The notes: generated by a model from the letters alone, not told the origin. A DNA stretch of 64,000 nt from an uncultured Acidobacteriota bacterium (GCA_963713655.1 CAVQMT010000044.1:6686-70685), one strand, 5' to 3'; positions 572 through 64,000 are shown, counted from the first letter of the stretch. Made by a program: numbers and translations.

Positions 572-2866
572 ATGACCACGCCCCCTCGTCAGGACGATGT
601 GCTCGATCTCTATCGCCGCTACGCCCGCGGCGGCGTCTCGCGACGCGAGTTCATGAAGCACGCCACGGCGCTCGGCATTGCCGGCTCCGCCGCGTCGGCG
701 CTCGGCGCGCTGGCCGGCAACGAGGCGGCCGCGGCGGGGTTGGCCGCGCAGGCGGCCGGCGGGCCCGGCACGCAGAAGCTGGCGCTCGACCTGTCCGAGT
801 GGAGCTACATGTGGGTGAACGTGAAGCGGGCCGACACGGCGATGGGCAGCTTCGTCGGCGGCCAGCAGATGTACGTCGAGTACATGGTGCCGACGCGCGT
901 GCGCAAGCCGTTTCCGATCGTGCTCGTGCACGGCGGCGGGGGACAGGGCCTGGACTGGATGGGCACGCCCGATGGCCGCCCGGGCTGGTTTCAGTACCTG
1001 GCGGCTGAGGGCTACCGGGTCTACGTCGTCGATCGGCCGGGGCACGGACGCTCGCCGCTCCATCCCTATGTGCACGGCGGCTTCCCGGCGCGCGCGAACA
1101 CGATGGAGGGGCTGCAGGGCAACTTCATCCCGCCGGCGCCGAGCAACACCGACAAGTTCCGCCGCAACCACACGCAGTGGCCCGGCCCCGGCAAGGTGGG
1201 CAATCCCGAAGTCAACGCGCTTCATCGCCTCACAAGGCGGCAGCTACGTTCAGCAGCAACAGCCGGGCGGGGCGCCGGGCCGTCAGGGTGGACCGGCCGC
1301 AGGGCGGCAGGGCGGGCCGGGCGGCGCGGCCGGCGGGGCCTCCGGTGCCGGCGAATCAGCAGCCCGCGGGTGCGCCCAATCTGGCGCACGCGACCTGGCG
1401 CGAGGCAGGCGCCGAGCTGCTCGACAAGATCGGCCCCGCGATCATCATGACCCACTCGGCCGGCGGCCCGTTCGGTCTGCTGGTCGCCGAAGCACGCCCG
1501 AACCTGGTGAAGGCCACGGTGATCATCGAGGGCGCCGGCACCGCGTTCGCCGGCGGCAACCGCTGGGGCCTGTCGACGATTCCGGTGACCTACGATCCGC
1601 CGGTCGCCGATCCGTCGGAGATCAAGGTCGTGCGGGTCGAGAACCCCGAGCCCGATGTGGACGGCTACTTCCTGCAGGCCGAGCCCGCGCGCAAGCTGCC
1701 GAAGCTGAAGAACACGGCCGTGCTGACGGTCACGGCGCCGGCCTCCAACGCCGCGCCCGGCAACCCCGGTCAGGTGGCGTTCCTGAAACAGGCCGGCGTG
1801 AAGGCCGAAGAGCTGCGCATCGAACGCGATGCGGGCCTGCGCGGCAACAGCCACATGATGATGGTGGAGAAGAACAACCGCGAGGTCCTGCAGCCCATCC
1901 TGAACTGGCTGGACAAGAACGTGACCGGCAGCGCCCCCGCCTACAAGAAGCGCGGCACCGACTCCACGGCGCTGCGCCTGGCGGACATGGGCTACTTCTG
2001 GATCGGCGCCGAGCCCAGGAAGATGGACTACGGCACCATCGTCTCGGGGCAGATCTACGTCCAGTACCTGATCCCCGAGCAGATCCGCCAGCCGCTGCCG
2101 ATCGTGCTCGTGCACGGCGGCGGCGGCCAGAGCACCGACTACATGGGCCTCGACGGCAACGCCAGCTGGGCGCACTACTACGTGCAGGCCGGCTACCAGG
2201 TGTACCTGGTCGATCGGCCCGGTCACGGCCGCGTGCCGAACCATCCCGATACCACCGGTCCGATTGGCGCGATGCCGACCTACGACTTCGTGTCCGGCCA
2301 ACTGCGGCGCGGGGCCACCGGCACGCCGCGGCGTTGGGCGGGCACGGGCCTGCCGGGCGACCCGCTGCTCGATCAGTGGATGGCGTCGTCGAACGCGGCG
2401 CCGACCAACAACGCCGCGATGATGGAGCTGTGGAAGAGCCGGGGCGGCATGCTGCTCGACAAGATCGGCCCGGCGATCATCCAGACGCATTCGGCCGGCG
2501 GCCCGTTCGGGTGGCTGACCGCCGACGCCAGGCCCAACCTGGTCAAGGCGATCGTGTGCTTCGAGGGCGCGCCGGCACCGCTCGTCGGGCAGGGCGGGGC
2601 GGTGCAGCCGCTGGCCAACCTCAAGAACATCCCCATCCTGTACTTCGAGGCCGAGAATTCCGGCTTCACGTTCGGCCGGCAGCTGCTGCCGGCGTTGAAG
2701 CAGTCGGGCGCGGCGGCGGAGTACTTGAGCTTGAAGGACCGCGGCATCACGCGGCAACAGCCACTTCGCGATGGTGGAGACCAACCGCAAGGAGATCTTC
2801 GAGGTGCTGCGCGGCTGGATCGAGAGCAAGTTGCCCGCGCGCGGAAACACGACCGCGCGGCTGTAG
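572..2866 (+). CDS. Tat-signal, internally duplicated (two-domain) alpha/beta hydrolase; apparent frameshifts
   Basis: It has a twin-arginine leader (SRREFMKHATALGIAGSAASA). Two homologous halves each carry VLVHGGGGQ, VDRPGHGR and THSAGGP (nucleophile-elbow-like) motifs. The reading frame hops near 1.22-1.38 kb and near 2745. The final segment RGNSHFAMVETNRKEIFEVLRGWIESKL ends at TAG 2864-2866. Confidence 0.7.
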
Positions 2867-2901
2867 GGGCTCCGGGCTCCAGGCTACAGGCTCCGGGCCC
2901 G
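2867..2901. repeat. Tandem heptamers GGGCTCC GGGCTCC AGGCTAC AGGCTCC GGGCCCG immediately after the hydrolase stop
   Basis: Direct reading shows five 7-nt units. AGGCTCC is the reverse complement of the GGAGCCT unit at 44981-45015. Confidence 0.85.
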
Positions 2902-2946
2902 GCAAAAGCAACGGCGGCGGCGGCCGCGGCGTCATAGTAGAGACGT

Positions 2947-4404
2947 ATGGACGCCGCGCTTCGTGCCCTGAATCGCTTTGGCCTCGGTGCCCGCGTGGGC
3001 GAGGGCCGCCGCCTCTCGGATCCGCGCGGCTGGCTGCGCGCACAACTGCGCGGCGATGCGCCACGCCTGACACCCCCGGCGGGCGCCGAGCCCGACACCA
3101 TCGGCGACGCCGTGCGGGGCTTGCGCCAGCTGGGGCAGGGCGACGAGGCCGCCCGCCGGCAGGCGCGCCGGCGTCTCCAGGAGATCGCCGCCGCGGAGCT
3201 GCGGCAGGCCCTCACGACCCGCGTCACCAGCGACCGCCCGTTCGTCGAGCGGCTGGTCGCGTTCTGGTCCAACCACCTGTGCGTGTCGATGGGCGCCAAG
3301 GTGCTGGTCGCGCCGCTGGCCGGCAGCTACGAGCGCGACGTCATCCGTCCCCACGTGCTGGGACGATTCGAGGACATGGTGCTGGCCTCGGCCAGACACC
3401 CGGCCATGCTGGCCTACCTCGACAACTTTCAATCGATCGGGCCGGCGTCGCCCGCCGCGACGTTGGGCCAGCGCGCTGGTCGTCCGCGTGCGGCTCAGCA
3501 GCCCGCTCCCGCGCGGCGCGGGCTGAACGAGAACTACGCCCGCGAGCTGCTGGAGCTGCACACGCTGGGCGTGGACGGCGGCTACACGCAGCAGGATGTC
3601 CAGGAGCTGGCCCGGATGCTGACCGGCTGGACCATCGACGGCATTGCCGGTCCGGGGGCGCGCGCCGCCGCCGCGACGCAGCGCGGGCGGGGCGGGCGGC
3701 GTGGGGGAGCCGCGCGCGCGCAGGCGGCGGCGCCGGACGGCCCGCTGCGGTTCGTCTTTCGCGAGGCGCTGCACGAGCCCGGCGCCAAGACGCTGCTCGG
3801 CACCCGGTACGGCGAGGACGGCGAGGACGAAGCGGTCCGCGCCATCAAGACCCTGTGCGCCCACCCGTCCACGGCGCGCTTCGTTGCCCGCAAGCTGGTG
3901 ACGCACTTCGTCAGCGACGAGCCGCCCGCGGCGGCCGTGGACCGGGTGGCGCAGACGTTCCGCTCGAGCGGCGGCAACCTGAAGGCCGTTGCCGACGTGC
4001 TGATCGACCTGCCCGAGGCGTGGCAGGACGACCGGCGCAAGTTCCGCGCCCCGCAGGACTGGCTGGTGGCGGTGCTGCGCGCGCTCGGCCCCGCCGAGGT
4101 CCGCGAGAACGTCGGCCCGCTGCTGCGGCAATTGCGCCAGCCGCTGTGGTCGCCCGCCGCGCCCAAGGGCTACGGCGACACGATGCAGGAATGGGCCGAC
4201 CCGGACTCGCTGCTCAACCGCGGCGAGCTGGCGCGCACCATCGCGCGGATGCCCGGCCTGCGGGACCTCGAACCCGGATCGTTGCTGGAGGTGGTGGACC
4301 TGCCGGCCAACGCACCCTTGCCGGCGATGCTGGCCGACGCGTCGATCGCGCGCGACGAGCGCGTGGCGCTGGCCCTGGCCGGCCCCGCGTTCCAATGGAG
4401 ATAG
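2947..4404 (+). CDS. DUF1800 domain protein
   Basis: Intact 485-aa ORF. NENYARELLELHTLGVDGGYTQQDVQELARMLTGWT is the characteristic DUF1800 core. The stop overlaps the next gene's start (ATGGAGATAG). Confidence 0.8.
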   Translation: MDAALRALNRFGLGARVGEGRRLSDPRGWLRAQLRGDAPRLTPPAGAEPDTIGDAVRGLRQLGQGDEAARRQARRRLQEIAAAELRQALTTRVTSDRPFVERLVAFWSNHLCVSMGAKVLVAPLAGSYERDVIRPHVLGRFEDMVLASARHPAMLAYLDNFQSIGPASPAATLGQRAGRPRAAQQPAPARRGLNENYARELLELHTLGVDGGYTQQDVQELARMLTGWTIDGIAGPGARAAAATQRGRGGRRGGAARAQAAAPDGPLRFVFREALHEPGAKTLLGTRYGEDGEDEAVRAIKTLCAHPSTARFVARKLVTHFVSDEPPAAAVDRVAQTFRSSGGNLKAVADVLIDLPEAWQDDRRKFRAPQDWLVAVLRALGPAEVRENVGPLLRQLRQPLWSPAAPKGYGDTMQEWADPDSLLNRGELARTIARMPGLRDLEPGSLLEVVDLPANAPLPAMLADASIARDERVALALAGPAFQWR

Positions 4405-6798: not shown

Positions 6799-7772
6799 AT
6801 GCGGGCGCGCGGGCGGCCGCCGGCCCGCGCGCGAGAGCGTGCCCGCGTCGATGGTCCGCCCGCTCCGCGAGATCGCCTGGAAGTGCAGGTCGTCGCCTTC
6901 GATCTCCACCAGCATGAAGTGATAGTCGCCCGAGTAGGTACGCGCGATGTAGGACGTCGGCACGCCGTCGCCGGGCCGCAGCGAGCCCGCGCCGCCGCTG
7001 ACGAAATACTGGATGCCGCTCTGCAGCGTGGACCGCTGGTAGATGTGCTCGTGCCCCGAGAACACCACGCCGACGTTGTGGCGTCACGAACAGCGCCTCG
7101 AGGCTGGCGCGCTGGACCAGCGCCGCCAGGCGGTAGCGGCCGGAGGTGTAGATCGGGTGGTGCAGGAAACAGATCTTCCACTCCGCCGCCGACGCCTTGA
7201 GCCGCTGGTCCAGCCACGTCAACTGCTCGCGGTCCAGGTAGGTCGAGTCCAAGGCGAAGAACTCCACCGGCGTCGTCACCAGCGCCAGGGTGTTCCCCGG
7301 CGGCGCGAACGAGTAGTAGCGGCGGCCCTTCATGTTGAACTGCTCGTAGTACACCTGGCGGGGATCGTCGTGGTTGCCGAGCGCGGCATAGAACTGGACG
7401 CCGCGATCGAGCAGCGCCTGGTAGGGCTGCTCGAACTTCACGCGGTAGTCCTCCGGCGTCGCGACGCCTTCGTAGAGGTTGTCGCCGAGCATGATCGTGA
7501 ACGGGAACTCGAACTGCTGGTGGTAGCGCGCCATCTGATCCGCGACCTCGCGCTGCGGCTTGGTGCCGCGGCCGCTGTCGCCGATGACCGCGAACTTCAC
7601 CGACGTCGGCGAGTTGGGCAGCATCAGCGTGCCGGCGGCGATGCCCTCGAGCGCCGCCTGGCGGACGGTCGCGGCCGGGCTCGGCGGCGGATCTCGTGGC
7701 CGCAGCCGCTCGTCAGCACGCCAGCCAGAGCGGCAGCCAGCACCAGCTGGGCCGTGCGCGTGGGCCGGGCCA
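6768..7772 (-). CDS. Lipoprotein metallophosphoesterase (calcineurin/purple-acid-phosphatase-like); apparent frameshifts
   Basis: MARPTRTAQLVLAAALAGVLTSGC is a lipobox signal. The metallophosphoesterase motifs GDSG, GDNLY, GNHD, HHP and GHEH are all present. Frame hops occur near 7690 and 7070. The 3' end is uncertain (6691 or 6768). Confidence 0.7.
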
Positions 7773-7827
7773 TGTCTGTGCCCGGTGCAGAAAGCGGGCC
7801 AGCGGCGGCGTCTACAATCAGCACGTT

Positions 7828-9139
7828 GTGGCAAGCGCGCCCGAGCACGAGATCCTGACCGTCGGCCGCCGCGAGGTCGCCGTATCGAACCCGCGAAAGG
7901 TCCTGTTCCCGCAGGCGGGCCACACCAAGCTGGATCTGGCCCTCTACTACATCGCCGTGGCGGAGGGCGCGCTGCGCGGCGCGGGCGGCCGGCCGAACAT
8001 GCTGCTCCGGTTCCCGAACGGGATCGCCGAGGAGTCGTTCTACCAGAAGCGGGCACCCGACTCGCGGCCGCCGTGGATCGAAGTGGTCGAGCTGTCGTTT
8101 CCGTCCGGCCGCACGGCGAAGGAAGTGGTGCCGCGCGACGCCGCCGCGCTGGTGTGGATGGCCAACCTGGCGTGCCTCGAGCTGCATCCGCATCCGGTGC
8201 GCGCCGAAGACCTCGATCATCCCGACGAGATACGGATCGACCTCGATCCCGTGCCGGGCATCGAGTGGCCTCAGGTCCGCGAGGTGGCCGGTGTCGTGCG
8301 TGCGACCCTCGCCGATTTCGGCCTGGTGGGGTGGCCCAAGACCTCGGGCTCACGCGGCATGCACATCTACGTGCGCATCCAGCCGCGATGGGGCTTCACC
8401 GAGGTACGGCGGGCGGCCCTCGCGCTTGGCGCGCGAGGTGGAGCGGCGCGCGCCCACGCTGGCGACCAGCAAGTGGTGGAAGGAGGAGCGCCACGGCGTG
8501 TTCCTCGACTACAACCAGAACGCCAAGGACCGGACGATCGCCGCCGCCTATTCGGTGCGTCCCAAGCCCGATGCGCGCGTCTCGGCGCCGCTCGCCTGGG
8601 ACGAGGTCGGCGCCTGCGAGCCAGGCGACTTCACGCTGCGGACGATGCCGGCGCGGTTCGCCGAGGTGGGTGACCGCCATCGCGAGATCGATGCGTCGGC
8701 GGGCAGCTTGGAGGCGCTGCTCGAGCTGTCGGCGCGGCAGGAGAAGGAGGGTCTCGGCGACGCGCCGTGGCCGCCGCACTACCGCAAGCAGCCGGGCGAG
8801 GCGCCCCGGGTGGCGCCGTCCAAGCGGCGCGTGCCCAAGCACCCGCTGATCGAGATCGGACGGGCCCGAAACAAGGCCGACGCGCTCGCGGGCCTCGAGC
8901 GCTGGAAGGCGCGGCATCCGGAGGCCAGCGCGCATCTCGAGCCAGCAGACGTGCTGGTCGATGCGATGCGAGGGCGGTTCACCACCTGGACGCGCATCCG
9001 CGTCAACCTGCAGCACGTGCCGGCGGCGCTGCGGCCGGCGCAGGAAGCGCTCGACCCGGACGACGATCTGAACGACTGGCCCGCGCCGCCTGGCCGGCGT
9101 TACGCCCCGCTCGCGCCGAAGATCTTCTGCAGCTCGTAA
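7828..9139 (+). CDS. Stand-alone NHEJ polymerase/primase domain protein (LigD Pol-domain type) with a long C-terminal extension
   Basis: Contains VSNPRKVLFP, LELHPHP, WPKTSGSRGMHIYV, VFLDYNQNAKDRTIAAAYSVRP and LAWDEV. One frame hop occurs near 8425. About 130 aa follow the Pol core. Confidence 0.8.
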
Positions 9140-17004: not shown

Positions 17005-17938
17005 ATGAAATTCACAATTCACAATTCAGAATTCAGAAACTGCAGCCGGAACTGCTTCTCTGGCCGCCTTTTGCGGGCGAGCCTGCCCCTGGCAGCCGCC
17101 TTGTTCCTGCTGGCGTCGCCGGGGCTGGCGCAGACGTCGAACAAGGCCGCTCCGGTGGTGGTCAGCCATTTCCACCTGAACGTGACCAGCATCGACGCTC
17201 ACAAGAAGTTCTGGGTCGATACCCTGGGTGGCACTGCGCTCAGGCTGAATGGTCTCGACGCCGTCCAGTTCCCCGACATCTATATCTTTCTCCGCCAGCA
17301 GGCGCCCACGGGCCCGACGCGCGGCACGGCGTTCGATCACATCGGGTTCGCCGTGCCGGACGTGCCGGCGTTGACGACTCGGGTGGTGGCCGCGGGATAT
17401 CAGCTGACCACCGGCCGCGAGCCGGCGCCGGGGCAGGAGGCCGCGGCGGCGACCGGCACCCAGGCGCCGTACGGCCGCTTTTCGTATCTGCTGGGCCCTG
17501 ACGGCGCGAAGGTGGAATTGGTGACGGCAGCCGGCGCCGAGCGCGCCTCCGATCGCGTATCACCACATTCACTTCATCAACAAGCAGTACGTCGAGATGC
17601 AGCAGTGGTACATGAAAGTGTTCGACGCCACGCTGCGCCCGGGTCAGACCGACTTCTTCATCGGCGCGGACCTGCCCGGCGTCGGCTACAGCCTCAACTT
17701 CTTCCGCTGGGAAGGGGATCAAGCCGTGACCCACGCCACCACGGCGGGACGAGTGATGGACCGTGCCGGGTTCGACGTGCGGAACCTCGAAGACTTCTGC
17801 AAGCGCCTGGAGGCCAAGGGCGTGGCGCTGACGGTGCCGTACCGGCGCCGTCCCGACTTCGGGAATCTGGGCACCGCCGTGATCACCGATCCGTGGGGCA
17901 CCGTGATCGAGTTGACCGAAGGGCTCGCGGGCCGTTGA
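17005..17938 (+). CDS. Secreted two-domain VOC (glyoxalase/bleomycin-resistance/dioxygenase) family protein
   Basis: It has a signal peptide (LPLAAALFLLASPGLAQT). HFHLNV...FDHIGFAVPD and HHIHF...DRAGFDV are paired VOC modules. One frame hop occurs near 17555. An alternative start is TTG 17071. Confidence 0.65.
17009..17036. repeat. AT-rich tandem heptamers AATTCAC x2 then AATTCAG x2
   Basis: Direct reading. They lie between the divergent PQQ-dehydrogenase and VOC genes, or inside the first 11 codons of the VOC gene if ATG 17005 is used. Confidence 0.9.
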
Positions 17939-18106
17939 GCGGCTGGCGAACGGAAACGTCATCGAATTCCCGAGTATCTACAAAAAAGTATGACGTCGCG
18001 TCCGGCCTCGAACCGCGCCGTCGATTCGGCGCCGTTCGGGAATGACGGCCGGCTGTATACTCGAATCCTACAGTGTTGTTTGATTCAAGCATTCATGTTA
18101 CGTGAT

Positions 18107-18125
18107 TGTGCAGCCGATCTGCACA
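18107..18125. promoter_or_regulatory. Perfect palindrome TGTGCAG-CCGAT-CTGCACA in the AT-richer spacer upstream of the porin gene
   Basis: Direct reading. It lies about 180 nt upstream of ATG 18303. It is loosely reminiscent of a CRP/FNR-type TGTG..CACA site, but the spacing differs. Confidence 0.3.
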
Positions 18126-18302
18126 TGACGGCGCCCGGTCAGACGGCGCTATCTGATCTCGCGCGCATATAGTTAACAGCCGATTCGAGCTCCTCGGTAT
18201 TTCGGCTTACCCCTTGCACCGTCCCTCCACACTTGCGGCCAGGTGAAGCAGCGCGACAGTCGCACGCGATTCGCTGCCCGGCCACATCGAGGAGGACATT
18301 TC

Positions 18303-19570
18303 ATGGGAGTTTCGAGTCGAGCCGTTCCGTTCACCGTCGTGCCGTCATTAGGTCAGGCCTTGCGCGCCCTGTCGGTCGTCTGCATGGGCGCCGCTTTGTT
18401 CCAGCCCGTGCCGGCGTCGGCGGGTCCCGGCGGCCCAGGAACTCCGGACGCCGGGCCCGAGCGCACCAGCGCCTGCACTGTCGCTGGCCAAGGCAGCGGA
18501 CGACCCCGACCCTCAGCAGCAGCAGGTTACGGTTGGGGTTACTGATCCGTTCATAGAGTTCTTTCGTAAGACGGAGATCCTGGGGCTCGTCGACACCTAC
18601 TACACCTACAACTTCAACGAGCCGCCGACCGGCACGTTCACGCCGCTCCACAGCTTCGACGTCAAGCACAACCAGTTCAGCGTCTCGCTGCTGGAGTTGG
18701 CGTTCAGCAAGGCCACGGGCACCGACGACCGGATCGGGTTCCGGTTCGACCTGCAATACGGGCAGACGGCGCAGGTCTTCAACACCGACCCGCTCGACAA
18801 CAACAATCTGCTGAACGTGCAGCAGGCCTACGTCAGCTACCTGGTCCCGGGGGGCATGACCTTCGAGGTCGGCAAGTTGGTGACCCCGGTTGGCAGCGAG
18901 GCGACCGAGGCGCATCTGAACAACAACTACTCGCGCGGGCTGCTCTACCAGTACGGGCCCTTCTACCATGTCGGAACGCGGGTGTCCTTCCCGCTGCACG
19001 AGAAGTTCACCATCGGCGGCATGTTCGTGAACGGGTGGAACGCCACCGGCGACAACAACTCCGGCAAGACGTTCGGCGCCAACCTCACCTGGGTGCCGAG
19101 CTCGAAGTTCACGTTCATCCAGAACGTCCTGTGGGGCCCGGAGCAGACCGACAACGCCGACGACAAGCGCACGTTTTCGGACACCAACCTCGCGTTCAAC
19201 TTTGGCGGTTTCACGACCGGCGCGAACTACATCTACGCCGTCGACGAAGTGGCGGGCGAGTCGATCGATTGGCAAGGGCTGGCGCTCTACTTCAAAGGCC
19301 AGCTCGGGCCGGTGTTTGCGATCGCGCCCCGCTTCGAGTGGTACAAGCGATCCCGACGGCTTCGTGTTCGGCGCCGGCGAGCAGACGATCAAGGAGTTCA
19401 CGCTGACCTTCGAACTCAAGCACCCGCGTGGCCTGATCACACGGTTCGAGTATCGCCGTGACTGGTCCGACGTGGACTACTTCACCAAGGACGGCGACCC
19501 GACCGACAACCAGAACGTTTTCACGGTCGGCTTCATCGTGCCGTTCAGCTCGAGGGCGGTGTCGCCCTAG
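18303..19570 (+). CDS. Outer-membrane beta-barrel porin (porin-2/DUF1597-like); about 2 apparent frameshifts
   Basis: GGAGGA RBS and a signal peptide. Alternating beta-strand pattern is visible (GLVDTYYTYNFN, FRFDLQYG, AYVSYLVPGGMTFEVGK, TFGANLTWVP). It ends in FTVGFIVPFSS. Frame hops occur near 18500 and 19345. Confidence 0.6.
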
Positions 19571-53118: not shown

Positions 53119-53325
53119 CTACGACGCCCGGGCGTCGATCAGGCTGGGAGATGCGGGCGCGGCCAGATTGGCGACCGTGTGATTGCGGCGATGCGAGTGG
53201 GTCTCGCAGGTCGATCCCTTTTCCTCGACGTAGGTCAGCTCTCGACCGCTGGCCAGATCGCGGTAGCGACCGACGACGCATCCGCACGTCAGGTTCTTGA
53301 ATCCCAGGAGCCGAACCAGACTCAT
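53119..53325 (-). CDS. Small Cys/His-rich hypothetical protein upstream of the methyltransferase
   Basis: MSLVRLLGFKNLTCGCVVGRYRDLASGRELTYVEEKGSTCETHSHRRNHTV carries a CxC...CxxHxH pattern. It lies 17 nt from the longest methyltransferase ORF. Confidence 0.4.
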   Translation of the reverse strand: MSLVRLLGFKNLTCGCVVGRYRDLASGRELTYVEEKGSTCETHSHRRNHTVANLAAPASPSLIDARAS

Positions 53326-53608
53326 TGCCCCGCCCTCCGTCGAGTGCACAAAGCAAATCTCGTGCCTGTGCGGCTAACGATCGGCGCGCATGCGCGTCGT
53401 GCGCGCCGCTGCCGAAACTCCGTTCCGAAAACACCAGCGGTGTGTGGATCAAGCCGCGCCCGGGAGCGGCCGGCCAGCCGCAGATCGCGGCATCGCCGAG
53501 GCCCCGTTCGTTGGATCGCGGTTCAACGCCTTGGACAGGGTCCGGTGACAGGATTTGTCGGGAGTTCTTGGATTCCAGCGAAGTCTCGCGGCCGCCGGAC
53601 CGCGGTAC

Positions 53609-54141
53609 TCACGGTTCTGTCGGCGGGTGTATCGCCTTGAACGCGTCGAGGTCGGCGCGCCGCTGGCGGCCGGCCACCATCCGCGCCCGCGCGAGCCGCA
53701 GCAGGAACGCCGCGTGCGCGGCGAAGAGCAGCACGATCTCGAGTGGCGTCGGCTGGGCCACGAAAGCCACGCCCAGGTTGACAAGAGACGCCACGGCGAA
53801 GACCACCGAGAACAACGGGTCCGCTCCGCTGCCGGGTAGCCCCGGGGAGGCGCGCATGGCGCTCGTCTCCCACGAGGCGCCGTCATCCCGACTCGTAGCT
53901 GACCTGAATGAACCGGCCGATGCGCTCGACGCCGACGTGCAAGGTCCACACAGCCTCGAATCCGCCGACCAGCACCGTCAGCGGGACCATCGCCAGCAGG
54001 GACAGGTCGCGAGTAGAGGCCCTGCATCGACGCCAGCGTCGCCCACGCCACCACGGCCGCTACGGCCACGACGACCCGGACCGTGCCTCGAGCGGCTATC
54101 GTCTGGCGCAGGGCGGCGAACTCGGCTTCGCGTATCGTCAC
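53609..54141 (-). CDS. Hypothetical multi-pass membrane protein; about 2 apparent frameshifts
   Basis: AAGGAG RBS plus GTG 54141. Hydrophobic segments are VVVAVAAVVAWATLA, LSLLAMVPLTVLVGGF and PLFSVVFAVASLVNLGVAFVA. Confidence 0.4.
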
Positions 54142-61914: not shown

Positions 61915-62689
61915 GGCTATGATCGGTACTCCGGAAATCGCGACCGCCAGCCTTTGAGGGCGCGGGAAGGGCATACTGCCGGCGCCTCCCGTATTCCGCA
62001 CCCCGACTTGCCGGCGTGCTTTGCACGCTGGTCTCTCGTCCCTCCCGCCCTTCCGCTGCCACCGCAACTAGTCCGTAATTCCACCGAGAACCATCGTGAC
62101 AATGCACCGTCCGGGTGGTTACCGACCGTTCGCGAGTGTCTGTCTTGCGCGCTACGCGCGCAACATCCGCAGCTGTTGACGACCAAGTCCGGCGTGTCGG
62201 GCGTCTACCTCGATAGCATTTGGGGACTTGTGAGACCGTCACCGTATCCGCCGCGTGGCCGCATTCGCCGGTGGAGTCGAGCGTTCGATGGCTCCCTCTC
62301 GTCGGACTTATGGCTCCCGCCGGAGGCTACGCTCACAACATTTGGTGAGCCATTCCTAGCCTCCGTGGCGGTCTCCGGTCCACTCGGGCCGATTCCTGCG
62401 ATTTTCTGCGATTATCTCGTCCGCGTTGTCCGGCCCACCCCTTGCTGCCTTCGCAGCAAGTCCTCCGGAGAGCGGTTTTCCGCGATATCCGGGATCAGAC
62501 CCGGGGGGCTGTCCACGGAACCGGCGAGATTCAGCGCGAGCCGCATCGTTATTTAAGTACTCTGGGCGAATTGCTGCTTGTAGATAATGAGAGACTGAAC
62601 CAACTTGGTCAGGGAACCGCACGCTCGGTCGCGGTAAGCACAACGCGCGAGCGTCATTTCCTCGCCGGAAAAGGAACTGGGGAAGCACC
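61915..62689. other. 775-nt unassigned, visibly lower-GC, hairpin-rich non-coding region (candidate ncRNA or long structured leader)
   Basis: No frame gives a credible protein. A nested hairpin spans 62316-62371 (GGAGGCTA..TAGCCTCC enclosing GCTCAC..GTGAGC). A perfect 8-bp hairpin, CTTGCTGC-CTTC-GCAGCAAG, lies at 62441-62460. Confidence 0.5.
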
Positions 62690-64000
62690 ATGTCGAAGAG
62701 AGAAGACGAGAGAGAAGATACCCGTGATCCGTTTGATCCCTCGGCGCAGGTGCCGTCGGTTCCGACCGGCCTGGACCGCCGAAAGTTCATCATGCGCAGC
62801 GCCGTGATCTCGGCAGCGGCAGTGATGAACGGCTGCGCGCGATCGGAGACCGAACAGAAGGCCCCGCCGCCAGTAGCCGAATCCGCAGCGGCCGATGCGC
62901 CCTCAGTCCCGTTGGCTGCCGACCTGAACGTGGTGATGAAGGCAAAGGGGCCGGTGTTGACGACCGCGGACGAGTTCTACAAGGTGGGACCTGGCCCTTC
63001 CAGTTCGCACACGATTGGTCCGATGCGCATCACCTACGATTTCTACCAGCGAGCGGCCAAACTGCCGGCCGACAAACTCGCCACGGCGACGAAGCTTCAG
63101 GTGAACTTGTTCGGAAGCCTCAGCGCGACAGGCAAGGGACACGGCACGGAACGAGCCGCGCTCGCAGGGCTCGTCGGGAAAGAACCGGCAACAGTCGACC
63201 CGAAGTTTCTGGACGGCTTGCGAGACAAGCCTGATCAGGTGTTCCCGGTGAAGCTGGGCAACAAGTCAATCAATGTGAGCCTCAAGGACGTCATCTACGA
63301 TGCGACCAAGGGCGACTTCAAGCACCCGAACACGATGACGGTCAAGCTCCTCGCCGGCAACGATGTGTTGCTCGAGCAGGAGTACTACTCGGTGGGCGGC
63401 GGATTCATCGAGTGGAAGGGGTATACGCCCCCGAAGAAGAACCCGCCGAAGTACCCGTTCGCGACGATGAAGGAACTGCGGGCCCACGCCGACAACAACA
63501 AGATCACGATCGCCAAGGTCATGCTTGCCAACGAGATGTCGATCGCGGGCAGGTCGGAAGAGGAGGTCAATGCCTTCATCGACAAGATCATCAACGCGAT
63601 GGTCGCGACGGTGAAATCGGGGCTGTCGATGCCGGAGGATGACGTGCTGCCCGGCCCGATCAAGCTGCACAGCAAGGCAGCGTCGGTTTACAAGCGCGCC
63701 AGGGACGACAAGTTCGAATCGGACCGCGGCATCGCCGGTCTGTCGGCGTTCGCGCTGGCGGCATCCGAAGAGAACGGGCGCGGACACCTCGTCATCACCG
63801 CTCCGACCGGCGGTTCAGCCGGTGTCATGCCGTCGCTGGTCTATGGGCTGATGGAGGTCCGAAAAGTCGACCGGCAGAAGGTCCGTGACGGCATGCTCGC
63901 GGCTGGGCGATCGGCTACCTCTGCAAGCACCATGCGACGCTGTCTGCGGCCGAGGGCGGCTGCCAGGCAGAGATCGGCGTGGCGTCGGCGATGGCTGCAG
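62690..64000 (+). CDS. sdaA: Iron-sulfur L-serine dehydratase (single-chain) with an N-terminal twin-arginine signal; runs off the window
   Basis: ATG 62690. LDRRKFIMRSAVISAAAVMNGC is a Tat-like leader. Also contains FYKVGPGPSSSHTIGPM, LFGSLSATGKGHGT, YYSVGGGFI and ITAPTGGSAGVMP. One frame hop occurs near 63903 (IGYLCKHHATLSAAEGGCQAEIGVASAMAA). Confidence 0.85.
   Translation, partial: MSKREDEREDTRDPFDPSAQVPSVPTGLDRRKFIMRSAVISAAAVMNGCARSETEQKAPPPVAESAAADAPSVPLAADLNVVMKAKGPVLTTADEFYKVGPGPSSSHTIGPMRITYDFYQRAAKLPADKLATATKLQVNLFGSLSATGKGHGTERAALAGLVGKEPATVDPKFLDGLRDKPDQVFPVKLGNKSINVSLKDVIYDATKGDFKHPNTMTVKLLAGNDVLLEQEYYSVGGGFIEWKGYTPPKKNPPKYPFATMKELRAHADNNKITIAKVMLANEMSIAGRSEEEVNAFIDKIINAMVATVKSGLSMPEDDVLPGPIKLHSKAASVYKRARDDKFESDRGIAGLSAFALAASEENGRGHLVITAPTGGSAGVMPSLVYGLMEVRKVDRQKVRDGMLAAGRSATSASTMRRCLRPRAAARQRSAWRRRWLQ

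Follow-up and report, generated by a model that had tools for sequence, protein, structure and literature searches.

A composite mnmA–sdaA intergenic gap with a putative sigma-54-type promoter and enhancer in an uncultured Acidobacteriota bacterium

Enhancer-dependent sigma-54 promoters (e.g., NtrC/glnAp2 and the Myxococcus Nla28 targets) have a GG and a GC at canonical spacing, a -12 element that can read TTGCT, and inverted repeats ~80-140 bp upstream. PMC9765219 quotes their consensus as TGGCACG-N4-TTGC(T/A) and includes TGGCCCA-N4-CTGCT, at Myxococcus mrpB, among putative sigma-54 sites. A serine dehydratase gene is controlled by a protein of the enhancer-binding class in P. aeruginosa, where sdaA lies in the gcs2 operon (gcvH2-gcvP2-glyA2-sdaA-gcvT2), which is activated by GcsR, a TyrR-like enhancer-binding protein, and whose first gene has a putative RpoN site 79 bp ahead of it (PMC4894688). 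A different kind of control is the glycine riboswitch upstream of gcvT, i.e., a long hairpin-bearing non-coding stretch before an amino-acid catabolic gene. Here we analyse a gap that invites comparison with all of these: the intergenic region between the divergent genes mnmA and sdaA, the latter encoding a Tat-signal serine dehydratase, in 64,000 nt of DNA from an uncultured Acidobacteriota bacterium (GCA_963713655.1 CAVQMT010000044.1:6686-70685). We call this whole stretch the window and count positions from its first letter. The gap is most likely two 5' regulatory regions set back to back by rearrangement, as judged from its matches to related loci, and the region linked to sdaA is probably a sigma-54 promoter region of the enhancer-dependent type, followed by a variable 5' untranslated region (UTR).

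The locus shares with the sigma-54 class the canonical GG/GC spacing, the TTGCT reading of the -12 element and the upstream inverted repeats. The -24 part of the Myxococcus mrpB site, TGGCCCA, is also the form found in the orthologs here, and the Nla28 half-site CT(C/G)CG(C/G)AG is similar to the half-site CTCCG described below. Differences from the class are that no activator is encoded nearby and that the window copy is off-consensus at -26 and in enhancer site 1. The likeness to GcsR/RpoN control lies in a serine dehydratase gene, a bacterial enhancer-binding protein (bEBP), repeated palindromes upstream of a putative RpoN site and a response to amino acids, which for this locus is proposed from sequence. 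Unlike in gcs2, however, sdaA stands alone here (with porins in one relative, L122), its product carries Tat and lipobox export features, and neither glycine-cleavage genes nor an activator gene adjoin it. The GcsR site TGTAACG-N4-CGTTCCG has no match in 61915-62689, even with up to 3 mismatches allowed. Compared with amino-acid leader RNAs, the gap has neither an Rfam match nor covariation, its architecture is not conserved, and the part rich in hairpins is situated 5' of the predicted promoter.

The start codon of mnmA is at 61914-61912 on the minus strand and the ATG of sdaA is at 62690 on the plus strand, which gives the 775 nt that an earlier, sequence-only reading of the window had reported. 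NCBIfam models identify the flanking genes as MnmA (430 bits) and L-serine ammonia-lyase (211 bits). The same reading had described the gap as low in GC, as devoid of a convincing protein and as containing a duplicated motif, a nested hairpin and an 8-bp stem. All three motifs are present where it placed them, and the GC of the gap is ~0.57-0.64 as against 0.697 window-wide, with the reduction extending beyond the gap into sdaA. Third-position GC periodicity, computed from GC at each codon position, is flat over the gap, making it the window's longest non-periodic stretch (990 nt after smoothing; the runners-up are 17821-18465 at 645 nt and 53131-53685 at 555 nt). A Pfam search of the gap's ten stop-to-stop open reading frames (ORFs), covering any frame, gave zero matches, and ortholog copies of the region have no frame in common and vary by indels not divisible by three, including a 124-nt block. 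Together, the flat periodicity, the Pfam result and the non-triplet indels indicate that the gap is non-coding; that it is both non-coding and composite is highly likely. No part of it has a second copy in the window, which excludes a repeat of the miniature inverted-repeat transposable element (MITE) or repetitive extragenic palindrome (REP) type there, and a blastn search of the gap against a plasmid collection, in which distant matches were sought, found none.

The gap is composite because its parts match the loci of different relatives: ~130 nt belong with mnmA, ~110 nt form an orphan junction, and ~500 nt form an sdaA-linked module (breakpoints in Table 1). For mnmA, we compared 80 Vicinamibacterales/Acidobacteriota mnmA loci by blastn and nhmmer. 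The closest mnmA genes come from Vicinamibacterales (Acidobacteriota) metagenome-assembled genomes and have 73-84% amino-acid identity. Only one of the 80 loci, L052, matches the gap, and only over the mnmA-proximal part; sdaA adjoins mnmA in 0/80. The orphan segment is presumed to be a rearrangement junction. For sdaA, orthologs at 72-97% identity are numerous in soil metagenomes and assemblies. L161, whose sdaA has 97% amino-acid identity, is 91% identical to the window from 62189 on, with homology continuing into sdaA, but has vapBC instead of mnmA as its upstream neighbour. L162 is 94% identical from 62208, and L165, L082, L086, L090, L103 and L081 (related soil Vicinamibacterales) also align to the module, the weak match of L081 suggesting that its start may be as early as ~62156. 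The upstream neighbour gene differs at every locus that carries the module. In L163, L164, L087 and L085, sdaA orthologs of ~90% amino-acid identity have a wholly different upstream region, which in L164 adjoins a divergent AraC-family regulator. Since orthologs this similar have unrelated upstream sequence, the 5' control region has been swapped between lineages.

Within the module, conservation peaks at 0.84 mean pairwise identity (7 diverged sequences) over 62417-62444, on CGTCAGCGTTGTCTGGCCCACGCCTTGC, and this peak falls exactly on a sigma-54-type -24/-12 element, which in the orthologs has the form TGGCCCA-N4-TTGCT. Its GG and GC are invariant in 9/9 aligned sequences and their 10-nt spacing is exact in 8/9. 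The orthologs agree with the consensus at 10/12 positions, and 1.4% of random 480-nt segments reach a score of at least 10. The strict pattern TGGC-N7-TTGCW has 21 occurrences in 2 x 1.4 Mb of related DNA, 5 of which are at this position.

The element is also found beyond the sequences that align to the window. We scored 400-450 nt 5' of all fetched sdaA orthologs, with rates calculated from 400 nt in 80 orthologs. A relaxed -24/-12 pattern occurs there at 0.63 per kb-strand, versus a background of 0.054 (12-fold). At least 5-6 upstream clusters have it, at a distance of 115-260 nt from the ATG, and none of them aligns with another or with the window type (e.g., TGGCACACGACGTGC, TGGCACACCGCGTGC and TGGCATTTCTGGTGC), whereas ~0.6 clusters with a match would be expected by chance (our estimate, from ~26 clusters and 0.02 matches per region). 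Aligning the upstream regions on this motif uncovered a palindrome, CTCCG-N6-CGGAG (e.g., CTCCGACATTTCGGAG), which occurs at 0.33 versus 0.010 per kb of background (33-fold). A sigma-54-like motif lies 77-142 nt downstream of the palindrome in 10 sdaA loci. That this motif pair recurs with its spacing fixed, in upstream sequences with no alignment to one another, is beyond what shared ancestry can explain. A limited literature search did not turn up CTCCG-N6-CGGAG as a known site.

In the module itself, CTCC-N8-GGAG and CTCC-N4-GGAG repeats lie 107-140 bp upstream of the -24/-12 element (sites 1 and 2 in Table 1). Ortholog forms of site 1 are CTCCATCCCGTCGGAG (in L086) and CTCCGTCCCTTCGGAG, and site 2 contains the invariant alignment columns C133, G134, A136 and G138. 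Elsewhere, the motif pair heads a porin-amidohydrolase-porin-sdaA cluster in L122. At 628-745 and in the adjoining sequence of that locus, the palindrome CTCCGGAATGACGGAG has an outward-pointing sigma-54-like motif on either side, the rightward one leading into the series of porin-like, amidohydrolase-like, porin-like and sdaA genes. L122 may hold a divergent sigma-54 control region with additional regulon members.

These features suggest the following mechanism. A dimeric bEBP activator would bind the CTCC...GGAG inverted repeats at 62292-62325 and contact sigma-54 RNA polymerase at 62431-62445, ~110-140 bp downstream. Transcription would then start near 62457, placing a ~230-nt 5' UTR, of a length that varies among relatives, ahead of sdaA. 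That the promoter depends on sigma-54, where transcription starts, and what the activator is and responds to are all inferred from sequence. Activators with the GAFTGA sigma-54-contact motif are encoded in the Vicinamibacterales loci L035 and L088. The predicted promoter-to-ATG distance ranges from ~50 to ~235 nt among relatives, a spread of >180 nt that includes a 124-nt indel. L161 additionally carries a 908-nt insertion sequence (IS; 6943-7850, with a DDE_Tnp_1 transposase and perfect terminal inverted repeats of ~19 bp, GAGCACGTTGCGAAATTAG...), inserted at the equivalent of ~62556 and thus between the predicted promoter and sdaA.

Several observations weigh against a sigma-54 promoter at this position. 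Module identity is 74-94%, as against 0.70-0.92 at four-fold degenerate sites of sdaA, so common descent could account for much of the similarity, with constraint suggested by the peaks alone. In the window itself, the -24 element reads CGG rather than TGG (T->C at the first position); the window copy agrees with the consensus at 9/12 positions, a score reached by 10% of random 480-nt segments, and a single-sequence search for the -24/-12 pattern in the window found 5 matches where 6.1 are expected by chance. The window's site 1 has GGAC, not GGAG, and 17 rather than 19 nt separate its two sites. In L162, the GG-GC spacing is 1 nt longer, which may be an assembly error. The largest upstream cluster (27 loci) has neither motif, save for L109 and the operon head of L122, and when the pair was sought further upstream in this cluster, only L122 had it; the upstream type of L163, L164 and L087 has no good -24/-12 match. 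Lastly, neither rpoN nor a bEBP gene is present in the window, and no activator gene adjoins sdaA.

Such points would suit a rearrangement scar, i.e., a mostly neutral spacer with sdaA read from a conventional promoter of the sigma-70 or extracytoplasmic function (ECF) type. Similarity among relatives would then reflect recent divergence, in keeping with module identity close to that of synonymous sites, and the sigma-54 and palindrome resemblances would have no function here, in keeping with the degenerate state of the window's own copies and with orthologs that have replaced the entire upstream region. A possible promoter of this kind, GGAAC at 62613-62617 with GTAA ~16 nt later, belongs to a GGAAC-N16-GT(A/C)A pattern before the ATG that we spotted by eye. 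However, the GGAAC motif is absent from L082 and L103, a scan with the sigma-70 consensus found no site, and a neutral spacer would explain neither a conservation peak exactly on the -24/-12 element nor the motif pair at fixed spacing in non-aligning regions. We therefore think a scar unlikely. A decayed gene, or a small gene masked by assembly indels, is highly improbable: frames do break in this window (a 1-nt sdaA deletion near 63903-63906), ORFs are fragmented across it and 62420-62689 shows a weak codon-position asymmetry, but there is no periodicity over 61970-62420, no frame yields a Pfam match, and the orthologous copies, which come from independent assemblies, share no open frame. Collinear tblastx matches to L033 and L024 are compositional noise, because they fall in unrelated genes (GlpX-like and methyltransferase-like).

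The remaining alternatives involve RNA. The sequence-only reading had proposed the gap as the site of an unannotated structured RNA: a housekeeping RNA, a leader or riboswitch for sdaA, or a novel non-coding RNA. This did not hold up, as an Rfam 15 scan gave 0 matches at gathering scores (with E <= 10 allowed, the best had E = 0.28), ARAGORN found no transfer RNA (tRNA) or transfer-messenger RNA (tmRNA) and, with the Rfam models, no housekeeping RNA (RNase P, 6S and SRP RNAs included) anywhere in the window, and an alignment of orthologs, another check proposed at the time, gave no significant covariation. For a leader RNA (riboswitch or attenuator) that senses, for example, serine or glycine, either the 62621-62654 stem-loop or, if transcription began further upstream, 62270-62470 would control translation or elongation. 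In its favour, the 62621-62654 repeat is kept in ~11 orthologs with 88% of cells paired, the inner GCTCAC/GTGAGC stem of the nested hairpin is 92% paired and has two pairs with two-sided change (in one sequence each), and the fold of 62270-62470 is more stable than those of its shuffled versions (z = -3.5 on the plus strand). That stability, however, is similar on the minus strand (z = -3.1) and confined to the window, L161 and L162, the diverged orthologs L165, L082 and L081 giving z from about +0.2 to -1.8. Folding of the whole gap is unexceptional (z = -1.8 plus, -0.5 minus), as is that of the predicted 5' UTR, 62457-62700 (z = -0.4), and an intrinsic-terminator scan of the gap found no site and no T-run terminator. 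RNAalifold on 9 orthologous module sequences returned an unfavourable covariation term of +1.86, and covariation power is limited with the 9-13 sequences available. The originally noted hairpins have 85% of cells paired and 4 two-sided pairs versus 2.9 in shuffles (136/500), and their covariation score is reached by 12/500 shuffles, which is inside the tool's stated false-positive range. The nested hairpin's 3' arm is missing from L082 and L103, and its outer arms are deleted in these two and mismatched in L165 and L090. Orthologs retain the 62441-62460 repeat, which in the window overlaps both the predicted transcription start and the -12 element, only in part (85% of cells paired, zero compensatory pairs). 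The covariation score of the 62621-62654 repeat is reached by 132/500 shuffles, the repeat is absent from L090, and the UTR around it has accommodated a 124-nt indel and an IS; the repeat could be an operator, or could form a stem-loop in the 5' UTR. A leader RNA is thus improbable, and it is very likely that the gap contains no conserved RNA structure. A trans-acting small RNA in 61915-62188, with the 62011-62031 or 62145-62163 hairpin as its terminator or scaffold, deserves hardly any credence: stable local hairpins are present, but there is no T-run terminator, conservation ends at L052, and the orphan part matches nothing. A weak RsmY-like Rfam match over the 62145-62163 palindrome is a chance hit (E = 0.28; 16.7 bits where the gathering score is 57).

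The original suggestion of a leader for sdaA did point the right way, because the right two-thirds of the gap is a regulatory region tied to sdaA, but the structured RNA that it implied found no support. Under the sigma-54 reading, the hairpins are best read as mainly the inverted half-sites of the putative enhancer plus lineage-specific extensions. The duplicated ATGGCTCCC (at 62288 and 62310) and the GGAGGC/GCCTCC arms, in particular, are best read as CTCC/GGAG half-sites of a putative protein-binding enhancer. A combination of both ideas, in which the ~230-nt 5' UTR (62457-62689) with its conserved 62621-62654 stem-loop is a ligand-responsive leader RNA of a new kind on top of a new sigma-54/bEBP circuit with the palindrome CTCCG-N6-CGGAG, is very doubtful; if true, leader and circuit would jointly control a periplasmic, lipid-anchored iron-sulfur (Fe-S) serine dehydratase in soil Acidobacteriota.

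More generally, a long hairpin-rich gap can be enhancer DNA, and one structured-RNA candidate is removed. The testable motif pair CTCCG-N6-CGGAG and TGGC-N7-TTGC could mark out a sigma-54 regulon of the Vicinamibacterales, which are abundant in soil but poorly cultured. Its tie to a Tat-exported lipobox L-serine dehydratase hints at regulated amino-acid catabolism in the periplasm. The architecture is of the textbook sigma-54 type and the new part is the binding motif, so the advance is modest.

Table 1. Features of the mnmA–sdaA gap, in window coordinates; z values are for folding relative to shuffles
Feature	Position	Strand	Remarks
Whole divergent intergenic gap, mnmA (minus) / Tat-signal sdaA (plus)	61915-62689		775 nt
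mnmA-proximal 5' region	61920-62046	minus	Conserved with L052 (5995-5866), the closest mnmA relative
Hairpin CCGGCGTGC-TTT-GCACGCTGG	62011-62031	minus	~100 nt upstream of mnmA; z = -3.3
Orphan segment	62047-62155		No homologue in 165 fetched loci (nhmmer)
GC-rich palindrome TTGCGCGC-TAC-GCGCGCAA	62145-62163		z = -1.3, unexceptional
sdaA-linked upstream module	62189-62689	plus	Co-inherited with sdaA regardless of upstream gene
Putative enhancer site 1, CTCCCTCTCGTCGGAC	62292-62307		One-off variant of 16-bp CTCC-N8-GGAG
Putative enhancer site 2, CTCC-CGCC-GGAG	62314-62325		CGGAGG part almost invariant
Nested hairpin CCGCC/GGCGG, GGAGGCTA/TAGCCTCC, GCTCAC/GTGAGC	62317-62371		z = -5.3
Sigma-54-type -24/-12 element CGGCCCACCCCTTGC	62431-62445	plus	GG 62432-62433, GC 62444-62445
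Perfect 8-bp inverted repeat CTTGCTGC-CTTC-GCAGCAAG	62441-62460		4-nt loop; z = -4.7
Variable insert in predicted 5' UTR	62471-62595	plus	Absent from L086, L103, L090, L081
Inverted repeat ACGCTCG-GT-CGCG-(10 nt)-CGCG-CGAGCGT	62621-62654	plus	Conserved; 36 nt upstream of ATG
Ribosome-binding region AAAGGAA ... GGGGAAG and sdaA start codon	62670-62692	plus	Purine-rich; second conservation peak, 0.71-0.74 identity

On the mnmA side of the gap, the block GGGAGGCGCCGGCAGTATGCCCTTCCCGCGCCC (mnmA sense; 61958-61990, 45-75 nt upstream of mnmA) is near-identical in L052 and is probably an mnmA promoter or operator. The hairpin at 62011-62031 has the form CCGGCGTGC-GTC-GCACGCCGG in L052 (pairwise alignment) and may either regulate mnmA or have served as terminator for a gene, since lost, that lay upstream. 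No remnant of the gene that lies upstream of mnmA in L052 is detectable in the gap.

Among the sdaA loci, L088 encodes a 533-aa sigma-54-dependent activator with GETGTGKE and GAFTGA motifs (1382-2983, minus strand), two genes from sdaA. Of the module, however, L088 has retained just the block next to the ATG, and the locus has no -24/-12 match.

Frames are not always intact on these contigs. Relative to the 97%-identical L161, the window's sdaA has a 1-nt deletion near 63903-63906 that shifts the frame (GCGGCTGGGCGATC vs GCCGCATTGGCGATC, within 63895-63910), and a public product that is 100% identical to the window's sdaA (P0001) has 438 aa instead of ~541. L162 also differs in length at this point. 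The deletion could be a real pseudogene mutation or an assembly indel. A simple ORF picker based on third-position GC returns many short, fragmented ORFs across the window, and mnmA in L052 (6001-7057) is split across frames. Because fragmentation in the window and L052 fits indel-prone long-read assemblies, frame-based arguments on these contigs need care.

The start of the sdaA product (62690-62850) has a twin-arginine motif and, after it, a cysteine that resembles a lipobox (DRRKFIMRSAVISAAAVMNGC); both are conserved in the orthologs of L082, L088 and L090. They imply that this Fe-S serine dehydratase is exported and anchored to lipid, which is unusual for such an enzyme.

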